Below, one piece after another: positions 24,606-32,440 of a DNA stretch of 64,000 bases. The stretch lies in assembly GCF_044324785.1 (NCBI RefSeq), contig NZ_CP172127.1; one strand, written 5' to 3'. The notes beneath the pieces are model-generated. The model did not search any database. It was not told the origin of the DNA and saw nothing but the letters and a program-made list of their open reading frames with translations. This DNA is from Escherichia coli. Its GTDB lineage: Bacteria; Pseudomonadota; Gammaproteobacteria; Enterobacterales; Enterobacteriaceae. The first letter of the stretch is position 1. Each line of letters begins with the position of its first letter. The position numbers were made by a program, and so were the translations under genes.

Positions 24606-27350
24606 GTGAATTTAACCCTGACCCGAAGACTCTGGATGGGCTTTGCCCTGATGGCGCTGTTAACCCTGACCAGTACCCTGGTGGGATGGTACAACCTGCG
24701 CTTTATCAGCCAGGTGGAAAAAGACAACACTCAGGCATTGATTCCTACCATGAATATGGCGCGCCAGTTGAGCGAAGCCAGCGCCTGGGAACTTTTCGCC
24801 GCGCAGAACCTGACCAGTGCCGATAACGAAAAGATGTGGCAGGCGCAGGGGCGAATGCTCACCGCACAAAGCCTGAAGATTAATGCGTTGCTGCAAGCGT
24901 TACGGGAACAAGGTTTTGATACCACCGCTATTGAACAACAGGAGCAGGAGATCTCCCGTTCGTTACGTCAGCAAGGGGAACTGGTGGGACAGCGTTTGCA
25001 ACTGCGCCAGCAACAACAGCAACTCAGTCAGCAGATAGTCGCCGCCGCCGATGAAATCGCACGCCTGGCGCAAGGTCAGGCGAATAATGCGGCAACCTCC
25101 GCCGGAGCGACCCAGGCCGGGATTTACGATTTGATCGAACAACATCAGCGTCAGGCCGCAGAAAGTGCACTCGATCGGCTGATTGATATCGATCTTGAGT
25201 ATGTTAACCAGATGAATGAACTGCGCCTTAGCGCCCTGCGGGTGCAGCAAATGGTGATGAATCTGGGGCTGGAACAGATCCAGAAAAATGCGCCAACGCT
25301 GGAAAAGCAGCTCAATAATGCGGTGAAAATTCTGCAACGTCGGCAAATACGCATTGAAGATCCGGGAGTTCGTGCTCAGGTCGCAACAACGTTAACTACC
25401 GTTAGCCAATATAACGATTTGCTGGCGCTGTATCAGCAGGACAGTGAAATCAGCAATCGCCTGCAAACTCTCGCCCAAAATAACATCGCCCAGTTCGCGC
25501 AGTTTAGTAGCGAAGTCAGTCAGCTGGTCGACACTATTGAGCTGCGCAATCAGCACGGGCTGGCACATCTGGAAAAAGCCAGTGCACGCGGGCAATACAG
25601 CCTGTTATTACTGGGGATAGTTTCACTTTGTGCATTGATTCTGATCCTCTGGCGCGTGGTTTATCGCTCAGTCACGCGTCCACTTGCCGAACAAACGCAG
25701 GCGCTGCAACGCTTACTGGACGGTGATATCGACTCCCCTTTCCCGGAAACCGCTGGCGTACGGGAACTGGATACCATCGGGCGGCTGATGGATGCGTTTC
25801 GCAGCAGTGTTCATGCACTGAATCGCCACCGCGAACAGCTGGCGGCGCAGGTCAAAGCGCGTACAGCTGAATTGCAGGAACTGGTGATAGAACACCGACA
25901 GGCACGGGCGGAAGCAGAAAAAGCCAGCCAGGCAAAATCGGCGTTTCTGGCGGCGATGAGCCATGAGATCCGCACACCGCTGTACGGTATTCTCGGCACC
26001 GCACAGCTGCTGGCAGATAACCCCGCACTTAACGCCCAGCGCGATGATTTGCGGGCGATTACCGACTCTGGTGAATCGTTGCTGACCATCCTCAACGATA
26101 TTCTCGATTATTCGGCTATCGAAGCAGGCGGCAAGAATGTTTCGGTCAGCGATGAACCCTTTGAACCGCGACCGCTGCTGGAAAGTACCCTGCAATTAAT
26201 GAGTGGACGGGTGAAAGGTCGCCCGATTCGCCTGGCAACGGCAATTGCCGACGATGTACCGACTGCGTTAATGGGCGATCCGCGGCGTATTCGTCAGGTC
26301 ATTACCAACCTGTTGAGCAACGCCCTGCGTTTTACTGACGAAGGGCAGATCGTTTTACGTAGCCGTACTGATGGTGAGCAATGGCTGGTCGAAGTGGAAG
26401 ACAGCGGCTGCGGTATTGATCCCGCGAAACTGGCAGAAATCTTCCAGCCATTTATTCAGGTAAGTGGCAAACGCGGCGGCACCGGGCTGGGGCTGACTAT
26501 CAGTAGCCGTCTGGCCCAGGCGATGAGCGGCGAACTGAGCGCCACCAGCACGCCGGAGGTTGGAAGCTGTTTTTGTTTACGCTTGCCGTTACGTGTTGCC
26601 ACTGCACCCGTGCCAAAAACAGTCAATCAGGCGGTGCATCTGGACGGTTTACGTTTGCTGTTAATTGAAGATAACCCGCTAACCCAGCGAATTACCGTTG
26701 AGATGCTGAACAACAGTGGTGCGCAGGTCGTTGCTGTTGGCAATGCCGCGCACGCGATAGAGACGTTGCAAAATAGCGAACCGTTTGCTGCCGCACTGGT
26801 GGATTTTGATCTGCCGGATATCGACGGTATTACCCTTGCCCGACAACTGGTACAGCAATATCCGTCGCTGGTTTTGATTGGCTTTAGCGCCCATGTCATC
26901 GACGAAACGTTGCGCCAGCGTACCAGTTCGCTATTTCGCGGGATTATCCCTAAACCGGTGCCGCGTGAAGTGCTCGGTCAGTTACTGGCGCACTATCTCC
27001 AACTGCAAGTCAATAACGATCAACCGCTGGATGTATCGCAACTCAATGAAGATGCTCAGTTGATGGGGACGGAGAAGATCCACGAATGGCTGATATTATT
27101 TAAACAACATGCCCTGCCGCTTCTCGATGAAATCGACATTGCCCGCGCCAGTCAGGAAAGCGAGAAAATAAAGCGTGCCGCACATCAGCTAAAAAGCAGT
27201 TGCTCGAGTCTGGGAATGCGTAGCGCCAGCCAGCTTTGCGCACAACTGGAGCAGCAGCCATTATCTGCCCCCCTTCCACACGAAGAAATTACACGCAGTG
27301 TTGCCGCTCTGAAAGCATGGTTAAATAAGAAAGACCTGAACGCGATTTGA
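24606..27350 (+). CDS. torS: Hybrid sensor kinase TorS, 914 aa, GTG start
   Basis: ORF 24378..27350 trimmed to the GTG at 24606 ([16 protein letters not shown]...); H-box SHEIRTP, receiver and HPt domains. Confidence 0.85.
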
Positions 27351-27421
27351 ATCAATATCAGCCAGTTAAGAACAACTAGAATAATGGCATTTGGTATGCA
27401 ACTTAACGGACTGGCAAAATC

Positions 27422-28495
27422 ATGACAGAGAAAAGAAGAACCCGCTGGCAGCGGCGGCCAGGCACGACGGGCGGCAAATTACCGTGGAATGACTGGCGCA
27501 ATGCCACGACCTGGCGTAAAGCGACGCAATTATTACTGTTGGCAATTAATATTTATATTGCCATCACGTTCTGGTATTGGGTGCGCTATTACGAAACGGC
27601 AGGTAGTACGACATTTGTCGCCAGGCCAGGAGGCATCGAAGGCTGGCTACCGATTGCCGGTCTGATGAATCTGAAATATAGCCTTGCAATAGGCCAGTTA
27701 CCGTCCGTCCACGCCGCCGCGATGCTGTTATTGGTCGCTTTTATCGTCATCAGTCTATTACTAAAAAAGGCCTTTTGTTCATGGTTATGCCCGGTTGGTA
27801 CGCTTTCTGAATTAATCGGCGATCTCGGTAACAAACTGTTTGGTCGGCAATGTGTCCTTCCCCGCTGGCTGGATATTCCCCTGCGCGGCGTGAAGTATTT
27901 GCTGTTGAGTTTTTTTCTCTATATCGCGTTATTGATGCCCGCTCAGGCGATTCACTATTTTATGTTGTCGCCCTACAGCGTGGTGATGGACGTTAAAATG
28001 CTCGATTTCTTTCGTCATATGGGGACCGCGACATTAATCAGCGTGACCGTTTTGCTGATTGCCAGCCTGTTTATTCGCCATGCCTGGTGTCGTTATCTTT
28101 GCCCATATGGCGCGCTGATGGGCGTGATTTCGCTATTATCGCCGTTTAAGATTCGTCGCAATGCCGAAAGTTGTATCGACTGTGGCAAATGCGCAAAAAA
28201 TTGCCCATCACGGATCCCGGTCGATAAATTAATTCAGGTACGAACAGTGGAATGTACCGGCTGTATGACTTGCGTAGAGTCATGTCCGGTAGCCTCAACA
28301 TTGACCTTTTCACTGCAAAAACCTGCAGCAAATAAAAAAGCCTTTGCGTTGTCTGGCTGGTTAATGACGCTACTGGTTCTGGGGATTATGTTTGCGGTGA
28401 TTGGTTACGCAATGTATGCGGGAGTATGGCAAAGCCCGGTGCCGGAGGAATTGTACCGACGCTTAATTCCGCAAGCGCCAATGATTGGTCACTAA
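27422..28495 (+). CDS. yccM: Membrane polyferredoxin YccM (NapH/MauN-like), 357 aa
   Basis: Two CxxxCP and two CxxCxxCxxxCP motifs plus transmembrane segments. Confidence 0.85.
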   Translation: MTEKRRTRWQRRPGTTGGKLPWNDWRNATTWRKATQLLLLAINIYIAITFWYWVRYYETAGSTTFVARPGGIEGWLPIAGLMNLKYSLAIGQLPSVHAAAMLLLVAFIVISLLLKKAFCSWLCPVGTLSELIGDLGNKLFGRQCVLPRWLDIPLRGVKYLLLSFFLYIALLMPAQAIHYFMLSPYSVVMDVKMLDFFRHMGTATLISVTVLLIASLFIRHAWCRYLCPYGALMGVISLLSPFKIRRNAESCIDCGKCAKNCPSRIPVDKLIQVRTVECTGCMTCVESCPVASTLTFSLQKPAANKKAFALSGWLMTLLVLGIMFAVIGYAMYAGVWQSPVPEELYRRLIPQAPMIGH

Positions 28496-28509
28496 ATTAG
28501 CAACAAGCG

Positions 28510-28537
28510 GAACATCACCTCGCACGGGGTGATGTTC
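28510..28537. terminator. Hairpin GAACATCACC-N8-GGTGATGTTC between convergent yccM and gnsA
   Basis: 10-bp perfect inverted repeat; no clean T-run. Confidence 0.4.
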
Positions 28538-28543
28538 ACAAAA

Positions 28544-28717
28544 TCACATTATTTTGATTTTGACATCATAACTTTCAAGCCCGGTCATTTTTTCTCGTGC
28601 GGTGAAGCGAATTTCAGAGACTTCTTTCCCTGTATTCTTGTTCAGCTCGGCGATTTTTTGCGCGATAAAGTCGGCGATTTCCGTTTCGGCTTGTTTTTTT
28701 AACTCTTCAATATTCAC
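28544..28717 (-). CDS. gnsA: GnsA (secG-null suppressor), 57 aa, GTG start
   Basis: Hand-translated from the minus strand: VNIEELKKQAETEIADFIAQKIAELNKNTGKEVSEIRFTAREKMTGLESYDVKIKIM; below the ORF-track length cut-off. Confidence 0.8.
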   Translation of the reverse strand: MNIEELKKQAETEIADFIAQKIAELNKNTGKEVSEIRFTAREKMTGLESYDVKIKIM

Positions 28718-29608: not shown

Positions 29609-29821
29609 TTGTCCCGTAAAATGACAGGAATTGTCAAAACCTTTGATCGCAAAAGCGGCAAAGGATTCATTATCCCCTCCGACGGTCGTAAAGAAGTCCA
29701 GGTCCATATTTCCGCATTCACTCCCCGCGACGCAGAAGTGCTTATACCAGGATTACGCGTGGAATTTTGCCGCGTAAATGGCCTGCGAGGACCAACAGCG
29801 GCAAATGTTTATTTGTCTTGA
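29609..29821 (+). CDS. cspH: Cold-shock-like protein CspH, 70 aa
   Basis: Csp-fold translation [37 protein letters not shown]...; divergent from cspG. Confidence 0.85.
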
Positions 29822-31119
29822 TGGAGAGCGCACGCCGGTATGCGTGCTTCATTCACGATTTGCGTAAAACCGGCCAACGAACACATGCCCTGCGCGTTTC
29901 GCTCTTCACATCCTGCCAGGGTCAGTTTCACCTCTCCGGGCGGCGTATTTAATGATAGCGGCGTTTTATCACGCATCTGCTGTAAAGTCTGGAAGACCAG
30001 CGAAACCTGAATCCAATGGCTGTTATCGCTTAGCCGACGCCAGCGTTCAAACACCAGTTCACCACCTGGCGGTGTGTTATCCGGCTGACCTGGAAGCGTC
30101 CAGTTGAGCTCCAGTGCGCCGCCGAGATTTGCCAGATTAGTATCGTGTCCGGCAATAAACAGCACTGAAGTGGGTAATGTCACACCATACGCCTGTTTTT
30201 GCGGTGGATGGGGCGTCAACGCTGCCATGATCAAATCCAACAACGGGGTGGCGCGGCTGCGGGCAACCTCTGGCGTGCGTTGTAGCAAATAAAACTGCGC
30301 GTTATGCAAACTTAGCAAGGTGTTCCACTGGTGTGAATCGGTAATCCTTCCCCACCCCGGCTCCGGCATTCCCTGTGCCTGTTGCAGGAGAAATATCTCC
30401 GTCAGCATTGACGCGAGGCTTACCGCACCGGTTAATGAGACATTGTCGGCGCTCACCTTGAGTTCCGATGGTAATGCCTGCGTTAATGAACAGCTTTCGT
30501 CCTGTTTCTCACGGTTAAGGCACAAGTTTGATTGCGGAAAATTAAGCACTCGTTCCAGTTCGCGAAACGCCGTTTGCCGATGCCCGGTAAAGTCAGCAAT
30601 TGACCCTCCTGCCCTGCTGAGGATCGCGTCAGTCACGTTCGCGTTATCCAGTTGGCAAACGCCAGTTTTTAGAGGATTAAATAACGGATCGGGACTGGAC
30701 GTATCTGCCTGGGCATGTACGGTTATTGCACAGTCAGGTGCCAGCCCGGCGGCGAAGGCTTCGCCTGTTTTACGGGTACGCTCGTCGACATCAGCAATAA
30801 TCGCGACCTGACCAGGCTGCGGGCAGCCCTTTTTCGCCAGCAATCCGTCAGCCACCAGACGCTGGCGTTGGTAATGTCCGAGATAGGCGATCAGCTCACC
30901 ACCGCGCGGTGTCAGCCAACCCAGTTTTACCGGCCAGGTTGGCCATGCGTCTGGGGTGACATCCTGCATCAGTTGCGTGGCCTTGGTTGGTGCACGCACA
31001 CCATGACGACTGACAATCACCACACTTTCCAGCTTCAGCTCCGGCTCACTCTGAGCGAATGCAGATTGCGGGGTGAACGGAATCAGAAGAGATAAGAATG
31101 GGATCAAGATCGCTTTCAT
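29809..31119 (-). CDS. appA: Periplasmic acid phosphatase / phytase AppA, with a variant C-terminus
   Basis: ORF 29809..31149 trimmed to [14 protein letters not shown]...; RHGVRAP motif; ends ...[10 protein letters not shown] where I recall ...IPACSL in K-12. Confidence 0.88.
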
Positions 31120-31158
31120 CGATATGTTTCCGCTTTTCATATCCGACATTATTGATTG

Positions 31159-31303: not shown

Positions 31304-32440
31304 TTAGTACAGCTCGTTTTCGTTACGGCGGAGAGTTTCTGTCGTCATGCGTCCCCACATTTTGTAGTAGCTCCAGAGAGTGTAGAGCAACACAATGGGC
31401 AAAAATATCAGCACGATTACCAACATAATGCTCAGCGTCAGCTGACTGGAAGTGCTGTCCCACAACGTCAGGCTGGAGATTGGACTCACGCTTGACGGCA
31501 TGACAAAGGGGAACAGCGTGATGCCTGCCGTGAAAATCACGCCAAATTGCATCAATGACGCCATCAAAAATCCCCAACCCGGGCGACCACGATAAATCGC
31601 CATCACCGTCAGCAATGGGCAGAAGAACCCCAGCAGCGGGAAGATCCACAAAACGGGCGACTCGACAAAATTATTCATCCAGGCACCAGGTAGCACTGCC
31701 ACCAGTTTCATTAACGGATTGGAAGGACCGTTAGCATCCTGGGCGAGCAGTACAAAGCCATCAATACCGACCCATAGCCAGTAACCCGCCAGCAAAAAGC
31801 ACAGCATCACCAACAGTGCAGCGCGTTTAGTCGCCAGCTGTGAACGCAGATGAATCACACCAACAGTTTTCAGTTGTAACCAGACGCCACCTTGCAAAAT
31901 CACCATCCCAAGGCTGAGCAATCCGCACAATAAAGGGAATGGCGTCAGCAGTTGCCAGAAGCTGCCGAGATACTCCACGCGTAATTGCGGTGTGAAGGCA
32001 AACGGCACGCCGAGCAGCAAGTTGCCGAAGGCAATACCGAAGACTACCGGCGGCACCAGACTGCCGATGACCAGTCCGGCATCCCACATTTTACGCCAGC
32101 GTGCATCGGCGATTTTTCCGCGATAATCAAAGGCCAGCGGGCGGAAGAACAGCGAGCACAGCACCAGAATCATCGCCACATAAAAGCCGGAAAACGCCGC
32201 TGCATAAACTCTGGGCCAGGCGGCAAATAATGCCCCACCTGCGAGGATCAACCAGACCTGATTGCCTTCCCAGTGCGCACCAACGCTATTAATCACTATC
32301 CGGCGTTCATCATCATCACGCGCCACCAGCGGCAGCAAACAGCCAATCCCCATGTCAAATCCGTCGGAGATCATAAAGACCACCAGGATCACGCCAATCA
32401 GCAGCCACCAGATGAAGCGCAATGTTTCATAATCAAACAT
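31304..32440 (-). CDS. appB: Cytochrome bd-II ubiquinol oxidase subunit II AppB, 378 aa
   Basis: CydB-like polytopic membrane protein, [17 protein letters not shown]... Confidence 0.95.

Follow-up and report, generated by a model that had tools for sequence, protein, structure and literature searches.

The gene yccM of Escherichia coli, found at positions 27422-28495 of the 64,000-nucleotide stretch of DNA analysed here (contig NZ_CP172127.1 of RefSeq assembly GCF_044324785.1, in the following "the window"), encodes, as observed or directly predicted, a stand-alone inner-membrane iron-sulfur protein. Because an NsrR operator lies immediately upstream of it, and in agreement with published chromatin immunoprecipitation (ChIP) data, we assign the gene with high confidence to the nitric-oxide (NO; nitrosative) stress regulon and not to Tor. 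Regarding its function we are evenly divided on whether YccM is a NO-stress-induced membrane redox relay that would feed cytoplasmic repair and detoxification metalloproteins, and our confidence in any specific acceptor is low. That NsrR binds the yccM promoter and that YccM is homologous to CcoG is already in the literature; we add that the operator is conserved across genera and that YccM homologues of different phyla are associated with NO-stress genes.

The gene is the known and annotated, functionally uncharacterised yccM. A megablast search with positions 27300-28600 gave matches of 95-99% identity in 5414 of 5426 complete E. coli genomes, where the gene lies between torS and gnsA and is labelled yccM, "4Fe-4S binding protein", by RefSeq. 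Twelve of the 5426 genomes are without a yccM match; five have yccM at only 80-90% identity. The gene is thus nearly universal in E. coli, yet without an assigned function. If the link to NO is true, a membrane component would be added to a stress response that is important for enteric and urinary pathogens.

The NsrR operator and its conservation

The short spacer between torS and yccM contains the NsrR-type sequence TAATGGCATTTGGTATGCAACTT, which matches the 11-1-11 consensus at 15 of 22 positions (Table 1). Of 13 gammaproteobacterial loci, 12 have a site with at least 15/22 matches in the approximately 100 bp that precede yccM; the background is 0.074 such sites per kb, which corresponds to 0.027 expected per locus. 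The offset of the operator from the ATG is nearly equal in E. coli, E. albertii, C. amalonaticus and Providencia. As the flanking genes of these loci differ, the operator accompanies the gene in at least six genomic settings. For the strain CFT073 an NsrR ChIP-seq peak and this 11-1-11 site, there with G at position 3, were reported for yccM (PMC5320621), and the same source lists yccM among 19 promoters bound by NsrR in K-12 according to ChIP-chip. The window has A as the third base of the site (27384), where E. coli N3, E. albertii, the cryptic-clade strain L012 and CFT073 have G; the site of the window is therefore one step further from the consensus half-site AAGATGCATTT.

A link to Tor, which had been implied by a sequence-only reading of the window, found no support. 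The three perfect TorR boxes (CTGTTCATAT) are located in the torC-torR spacer, on the minus strand at 22749-22811, and if one mismatch is allowed seven matches occur in the whole window compared to 3.2 expected, none of them near yccM. Adjacency to torS was seen only in Escherichia (loci L011 and L012 in the genome scan), and the position of yccM beside torS looks incidental. A promoter scan of the + strand upstream of yccM found no sigma-70 consensus, and a simple scan of the torS-yccM spacer found no terminator after torS; read-through from torS into yccM may occur.

Gene neighbourhoods of yccM and its homologues

In Enterobacterales six different neighbourhoods of yccM were found, with no neighbour in common. 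The gene is flanked by torS and gnsA in Escherichia, by a nucleoside phosphorylase and a LacI-type regulator gene in C. amalonaticus, by a different gene pair in C. youngae and C. werkmanii, by rsmI and a KDPG aldolase gene in Providencia, by mgtE and uxaC in Pragia/Budvicia, and by other genes again in Pectobacterium. The sequence-only reading had placed the gene without a partner oxidoreductase next to it, and the comparison bears this out: none adjoins yccM in E. coli or in 12 Enterobacterales loci, an oxidoreductase neighbour was absent from all 16 proteobacterial loci checked, and no single partner is consistently encoded with the homologues. As to a partner oxidoreductase, yccM is a true orphan.

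The genome scan returned 80 loci, in which open reading frames were called and clustered and the recurrent clusters annotated. The following counts refer to 77 loci and to recurrent neighbour families only, single-locus neighbours being left out. At least one NO-linked gene lies within 3 kb of the YccM homologue in 27 of the 77 loci. Among the genes of the 60 non-proteobacterial loci, 19.8% are NO-linked at a distance of 0-1 kb, compared to approximately 2% at 4-6 kb. The phyla concerned are Acidobacteria, Ignavibacteria, Bacteroidota, Zixibacteria and Desulfobacterota, and the homologues in NO context are full-length and 43-52% identical to YccM.

The arrangements differ between these phyla. 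Ignavibacteria show the order Rrf2>YccM>(hemerythrin)>NrfH>NrfA downstream of nosD/F/Y, and Melioribacter YccM>NrfH>NrfA. The order in Bacteroidota is Rrf2>YccM>NirK>FGE-sulfatase-like>SCO1>RIC>hemerythrin. Zixibacteria have Crp>Fer4>YccM>Hcp>multihaem cytochromes and also YccM>DUF438-hemerythrin-PAS, and in Desulfobacterales YccM is followed by NrfA. Several arrangements occur in Acidobacteria, with Crp/Fnr, RIC (TIGR03652, 237 bits), hemerythrin, TIGR04053 radical-SAM, qNorB, cytochrome bd I/II and CysE/CysK. Altogether nrfH-nrfA stands downstream of the homologue in seven loci, and nrfA also in L085 (Ignavibacteria, Melioribacter, Desulfobacterales). No single family is found beside YccM in more than 18 of the 77 loci; the recurrent neighbours represent a functional theme, not one enzyme.

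This set of neighbours is essentially the core and extended NO-responsive regulons described by Rodionov et al. 2005 (PMC1274295), which comprise hcp, dnrN/RIC, nrfHA, hemerythrin- and ferredoxin-like genes as well as Rrf2 and Crp/Fnr regulators; yccM, NapH or a polyferredoxin are not mentioned there. With the NsrR operator in the spacer and NO or N-oxide stress neighbours in five phyla, the context does carry information on YccM, whose redox partner the earlier reading had called not obvious from it. Two assignments of neighbours were rejected: the Rrf2 regulators beside YccM reach 45.6 bits with the NsrR model (cut-off 182) and match the superfamily model only, and neither Pfam nor NCBIfam gives any match for the polytopic protein that follows RIC in Acidobacteria, which had been suspected to be NnrS.

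Protein architecture and conservation

The intact open reading frame carries the two CxxxCP motifs CSWLCPVG and CRYLCPYG and the two 4Fe-4S motifs CIDCGKCAKNCP and CTGCMTCVESCP. Reading frame, Pfam and hydropathy agree with the description of a 357-residue membrane protein with these four motifs given earlier from the sequence alone. Pfam reports Fer4_5 (PF12801) twice (80.1 bits, E 1e-22) and a 4Fe-4S dicluster domain. Five membrane helices were obtained from hydropathy and charge count, and the AlphaFold2 model calculated from 58 homologues (predicted local distance difference test, pLDDT, 93.8; predicted template modelling score, pTM, 0.90) contains the same elements. Lys and Arg residues number 10 in the N-terminus (amino acids, aa, 1-35), which precedes helix 1, 5 in loop 2 and 12 in loop 4; loop 1, loop 3 and the C-terminal tail have 2 each. 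Based on the positive-inside rule applied to these counts, the N-terminus, the CxxxCP motifs and the 2x[4Fe-4S] ferredoxin domain are directly predicted to be cytoplasmic, and the two hairpins and the tail periplasmic.

Both halves of the protein repeat the unit helix-hairpin-helix-CxxxCP (z = 7.7 compared to shuffles), and within this repeat the second CxxxCP aligns with the first. Hairpin 1, with the low charge of loop 1, forms model helices at 70-75 and 77-90, and the likewise weakly charged tail contains W336 and the terminal His H357. A sequence profile search of the PDB matched ferredoxin domains only, leaving the membrane part of YccM unmatched, and Foldseek with the YccM model gave no structure below E 1e-3. 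By these searches the superfamily of NapH, NosR, CcoG, MauN and PceC has no solved structure for its membrane part.

The conservation of the Cys motifs, on which the earlier reading had made its description depend, was confirmed. Across 15 orthologues none of the 12 motif cysteines varies. In an alignment of 58 full-length homologues with 28-77% identity 11 of the 12 are invariant, including C119, C123, C278, C281 and C284, while C288 is kept in 57 of the 58. R224 and P228 are invariant together with C223 and C227. The motif set of YccM is not due to chance. Outside the motifs, R68, P69, E73, L76, P77, I78 and H97 of hairpin 1 are conserved in 45-58 of the 58 homologues, D190 and M193 are conserved in hairpin 2, W336 just past helix 5 is kept in 56, and a His stands at or next to the C-terminus in 42.

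Searched exhaustively, 1.84 billion cluster representatives yielded 319 clusters at E<1e-30 and 2606 with the limit set at E<1e-10. The genera with close orthologues (53-98% identity) are Escherichia, Citrobacter, Providencia, Pragia, Leminorella, Limnobaculum and Pectobacterium/Samsonia; such orthologues are also present in some Burkholderiales-type metagenome-assembled genomes (MAGs), and the genome scan added Budvicia. Salmonella, Klebsiella and Enterobacter are not found among the best 120 matches, which reach down to 53% identity.

Relation to NapH, NosR and CcoG

YccM was compared to the curated families of the NapH-like superfamily. With 80.1 bits at a gathering score of 22 for PF12801, its polytopic membrane part and its CxxxCP motifs, it belongs to the Fer4_5 or "NapH-like" superfamily, and at this level the NapH/MauN/CcoG architecture proposed from the sequence alone stands. 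Membership in one of the families does not. The scores are 91.2 bits for the NapH equivalog model NF007013 (curated NCBIfam cut-off 234), 89.3 for NapH/MauN (TIGR02163, 213.05), 74.2 for NosR (NF046105, 1000), restricted to the C-terminal core and to NosR model positions 481-661, and 34.4 for CcoG/FixG/RdxA (TIGR02745, 316.7), restricted to aa 100-234. The 58 relatives behave like YccM in this respect. All of them match the NapH model, with a best E of 3.8e-28, the same order as for YccM itself; the best E among them for NapH/MauN is 6.4e-30, and the CcoG model matches only 22 of them at all. Because the scores lie far below these cut-offs and the accessory feature of each family is missing, we regard YccM, as judged from its sequence, as a separate subfamily of the NapH-like superfamily without a curated model of its own.

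NapH and NapH/MauN are the best curated-model matches. They cover aa 31-299 with the helices, both CxxxCP motifs and the 2x[4Fe-4S] domain, and share with YccM the duplicated helix-hairpin-helix-CxxxCP core with two Fer4_5 domains. NapH has four helices; to these YccM adds a fifth, followed by a conserved periplasmic tail. It scores under half of the cut-offs and is without a nap operon or NapG partner, as no nap genes occur within 12 kb on either side of yccM or in the 77 related loci, and its gene appears to be monocistronic, with an NsrR operator. NapH-like proteins are known to serve different oxidoreductases in a modular manner (PMC8238504).

CcoG/FixG/RdxA, the cupric reductase for the assembly of cbb3 oxidase, shares the CxxxCP motifs, two [4Fe-4S] clusters and a helix past the ferredoxin domain. 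After helix 5, however, CcoG continues into a periplasmic immunoglobulin-like (Ig-like) domain, whereas YccM stops 24 residues past this helix. No ccoGHIS or cbb3 context is present around yccM, and E. coli is without a cbb3 oxidase (PMC7558416). NosR, like PceC/RdhC, is flavinylated and supports N2O reductase or reductive dehalogenases; it has in common with YccM the Fer4_5 core, a C-terminal ferredoxin domain and a link to N-oxide metabolism, but also possesses an N-terminal periplasmic flavin mononucleotide (FMN)-binding domain that YccM lacks. In the flavinylation-associated NapH-like systems of Meheust et al. 2021 the FMN-binding domain is fused, or an ApbE or FMN-binding gene is part of the cluster (PMC8238504). 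YccM could not be placed among these systems, as Pfam gives no FMN_bind match in the protein and no ApbE or FMN-binding gene was found nearby. A likeness of another kind exists to FrdX and Hcr, the ferredoxin-like electron donors in the NO-responsive HcpR, NsrR and DNR regulons (Rodionov et al. 2005, PMC1274295). These share with the YccM homologues a ferredoxin motif and the company of hcp, nrfHA and hemerythrin genes and of Crp/Fnr or Rrf2 regulators, but they are soluble, whereas YccM is an integral membrane protein.

Possible function of YccM

If YccM acts as a relay in the NO response, inactivation of NsrR by NO would lead to its production. The protein could then pass electrons between the quinone pool, or another membrane-side donor, and an acceptor on the cytoplasmic side, the route running through the CxxxCP pair and both [4Fe-4S] clusters. 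Such a role is suggested by the likeness to its relatives NapH, NosR and CcoG. The likeliest acceptors would be the di-iron protein RIC/YtfE, hemerythrin-like proteins and Hcp, because their genes recur beside YccM homologues. In the Keio collection the yccM mutant shows sensitivity to critical high temperature, which complementation relieves in part, and it is hypersensitive to blue light as well as to four single stressors, oxidative ones among them (PMC5828445, PMC10782963, PMC11673782); this is weakly consistent with a function in stress. Taken further, the YccM family might represent an unrecognised membrane arm of bacterial NO defence across phyla, a quinone-pool-linked reductase that re-reduces RIC/YtfE, hemerythrin-like proteins or Hcp. 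We consider this extended form improbable; if true, YccM would supply the so far unidentified physiological reductant for iron-sulfur cluster repair after NO damage.

Several observations weigh against the relay. The transfer of electrons from quinol to low-potential [4Fe-4S] clusters would be uphill unless the potentials of the clusters are unusually high. The conserved H97, D190, W336 and terminal His on the periplasmic side are not explained by a purely cytoplasmic acceptor. The published NsrR data show binding and not derepression of yccM by NO (PMC5320621); according to the authors of the CFT073 study many NsrR sites exert little or no regulation, and our literature search turned up no expression data for yccM. 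NO-linked neighbours are present in only about a third of the loci, many of these loci come from related Acidobacteria so that the counts are not independent events, and homologues at 31-40% identity lie on a 1.2-kb contig or in contexts without NO-related genes, those at 31-34% lacking such a context. Finally, Salmonella, Klebsiella and Enterobacter, which are not among the best 120 matches, cope with NO, so any role of YccM would be accessory. Should the link to NO fail, YccM stays an ordinary uncharacterised NapH-like paralogue.

The conserved residues on the periplasmic side lead to the main rival, a metal reductase of the CcoG type, which we hold to be unlikely, though less so than any other alternative to the relay. 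Here the metal, Cu(II) or Fe(III), would be bound at the CxxxCP motifs or at a periplasm-side His/Asp/Met site, for which H97, D190, M193, W336 and the terminal His are candidates, and electrons from the two cytoplasmic [4Fe-4S] clusters would convert it to Cu(I) or Fe(II). The reduced metal would serve chaperones, exporters or the repair of metal centres, and control by NsrR would then reflect metal handling under NO stress. A review on copper homeostasis names E. coli YccM as a CcoG homologue that is without only the Ig-like domain (PMC7558416), and gives for CcoG two [4Fe-4S] clusters, two Cu sites and a reduction of Cu(II) and not of Fe(III). The fifth helix past the ferredoxin domain is a feature of CcoG and not of NapH. 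Among the neighbours, a YecH-family metal-binding gene stands directly upstream in two betaproteobacterial lineages, NirK and SCO1 follow downstream in Bacteroidota, nosD/F/Y lie upstream in Ignavibacteria, and a ferritin gene is 3 kb away in L007/L008. On the other hand, the score with the CcoG model lies well under those with the NapH models and fewer than half of the relatives match it, the Ig-like domain is missing along with any ccoGHIS or cbb3 context, and no gene of the copA, copZ, cue or cus type occurs among the annotated recurrent neighbour families. The haem-based NrfHA, Hcp and the di-iron neighbours have no copper link. A CueR-box-like sequence was not seen in the 71-bp spacer, which was inspected by eye only.

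Two further proposals concern known systems. The first, which comes nearest to the sequence-only reading, has in our view little probability: YccM would be a quinol dehydrogenase of the NapH kind and serve a periplasmic respiratory reductase whose genes lie elsewhere, such as Tor, Nap, Nrf or another one. It would be in line with the best curated-model matches, with the modular use of NapH-like proteins (PMC8238504), with nrfH-nrfA or nrfA downstream of several homologues, and with the same-strand arrangement in which yccM begins 71 bp after torS and a simple scan of the spacer detects nothing terminator-like. However, the NapH scores remain below half of the cut-offs, and neither a NapG-like periplasmic iron-sulfur partner nor an FMN-binding or other periplasmic cofactor domain is present. 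TorC and NrfH are the quinol dehydrogenases of their own systems. The adjacency to torS is confined to Escherichia, yccM standing elsewhere in Citrobacter, Providencia, Pragia/Budvicia and Pectobacterium; a distance of 4.6 kb separates yccM from the TorR boxes, and the 16 proteobacterial loci hold no oxidoreductase neighbour. A part of YccM in the Tus sulfur-relay system for tRNA 2-thiolation, to which one thermotolerance screen has assigned it, is most improbable. Although the yccM mutant was heat-sensitive in this screen like the tusA-E mutants, and hypersensitivity to blue light is shared by the tusC (yheM) and yccM mutants, such a phenotype overlap is common to dozens of unrelated envelope and energy mutants, and the classification of the screen is an annotation label and not an experiment. 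Neither Pfam nor NCBIfam matches YccM to the Tus, DsrE or MnmA families, and no tus or tRNA-modification gene is found among the annotated recurrent neighbour families of the 77 loci.

Locus organization and additional observations

The features of yccM and its surroundings are listed in Table 1.

Table 1. Coordinates of yccM, its motifs and structural elements, and related features. Positions refer to the window unless a locus is given.
Feature	Position	Strand	Remarks
yccM coding sequence	27422..28495	+	357 aa plus stop, ATG start (open reading frame list, RefSeq annotation)
NsrR-type 11-1-11 operator TAATGGCATTTGGTATGCAACTT	27382..27404	.	18-40 bp upstream of yccM ATG, in 71-bp torS-yccM spacer
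Transmembrane helix 1 (~aa 36-58)	27527..27595	+	Hydropathy, positive-inside count; model helix 28-58
Periplasmic helical hairpin 1 (aa 68-97), predicted	27623..27712	+	Signature RPxG(I/V)E(G/A)(W/F)LPI, His97
First CxxxCP (C119-P124; C119/C123)	27776..27793	+	Predicted cytoplasmic end of helix 2; sequence
Second CxxxCP (C223-P228; C223/C227)	28088..28105	+	Predicted cytoplasmic end of helix 4; sequence
First 4Fe-4S motif CIDCGKCAKNCP (C251-P262; C251-C261)	28172..28207	+	Predicted cytoplasmic
Second 4Fe-4S motif CTGCMTCVESCP (C278-P289; C278-C288)	28253..28288	+	Predicted cytoplasmic; Pfam
Transmembrane helix 5 (aa 312-333) and 24-aa tail, predicted periplasmic	28355..28492	+	Model helices 312-333, 342-354
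torS (context)	24606..27350	+	Ends 71 bp 5' of yccM; RefSeq annotation transferred from locus L001
YecH-family gene	L006:7627-7872, L009:7581-7829, L010:1302-1553 (also L018, L019)		Between parB and atp operon

The annotated gene order upstream is torD, torA, torC (-), torR (+), torT (-), torS and yccM (+). Downstream of yccM follow gnsA, ymcE, ymcF and cspG (-), then cspH (+), and beyond it appA, cbdX, appB, appC and hyaF to hyaA, all on the minus strand. The place between the Tor two-component genes and the cold-shock cluster given by the sequence-only reading is therefore correct, with torS on one side and gnsA-ymcE-ymcF-cspG/cspH on the other.

A plasmid mobility of yccM was considered and dropped. 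The 12 PLSDB records with the gene (97.7-98.5% identity) are non-mobilizable and measure 0.09-4.9 Mb (e.g. NZ_CP141089.1, 4.9 Mb); they are probably mislabelled chromosomes or pieces of chromosomes.

In two related betaproteobacterial termite-gut MAG lineages, and only there among all loci, the yccM homologue is preceded at a distance of 125-170 bp by a YecH-family metal-binding gene (82-83 aa; TIGR03853, 107 bits, cut-off 65.7; Pfam DUF2492). Due to this narrow distribution the pairing carries little weight. The ferritin gene of L007/L008 lies 3 kb from the yccM homologue.

Three Acidobacteria loci (L033, L040, L054) show genes for a hemerythrin-domain protein and a TIGR04053 radical SAM/SPASM protein (484 bits, cut-off 395) converging on the yccM homologue, then Crp/Fnr, RIC and a polytopic protein of 445-452 aa, approximately 100-1900 bp downstream of the homologue. 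Cytochrome bd is an NO-tolerant oxidase. Its I/II genes stand beside a Crp<YccM pair in one group of Acidobacteria (L024, L025, L042, L056), and in E. coli appCB (cytochrome bd-II) starts approximately 3 kb downstream of yccM (31304-32440 onward); this proximity in both may be a coincidence.

The mechanical open reading frame of torS begins with GTG at 24378 and comprises 990 aa (24378-27350), compared to 914 aa from the RefSeq start at 24606. The 76 codons in between overlap the divergent torT-torS region and are probably untranslated. The open reading frames of cspH (29609-29821, +) and appA (29809-31149, -) overlap tail to tail by 13 bp.

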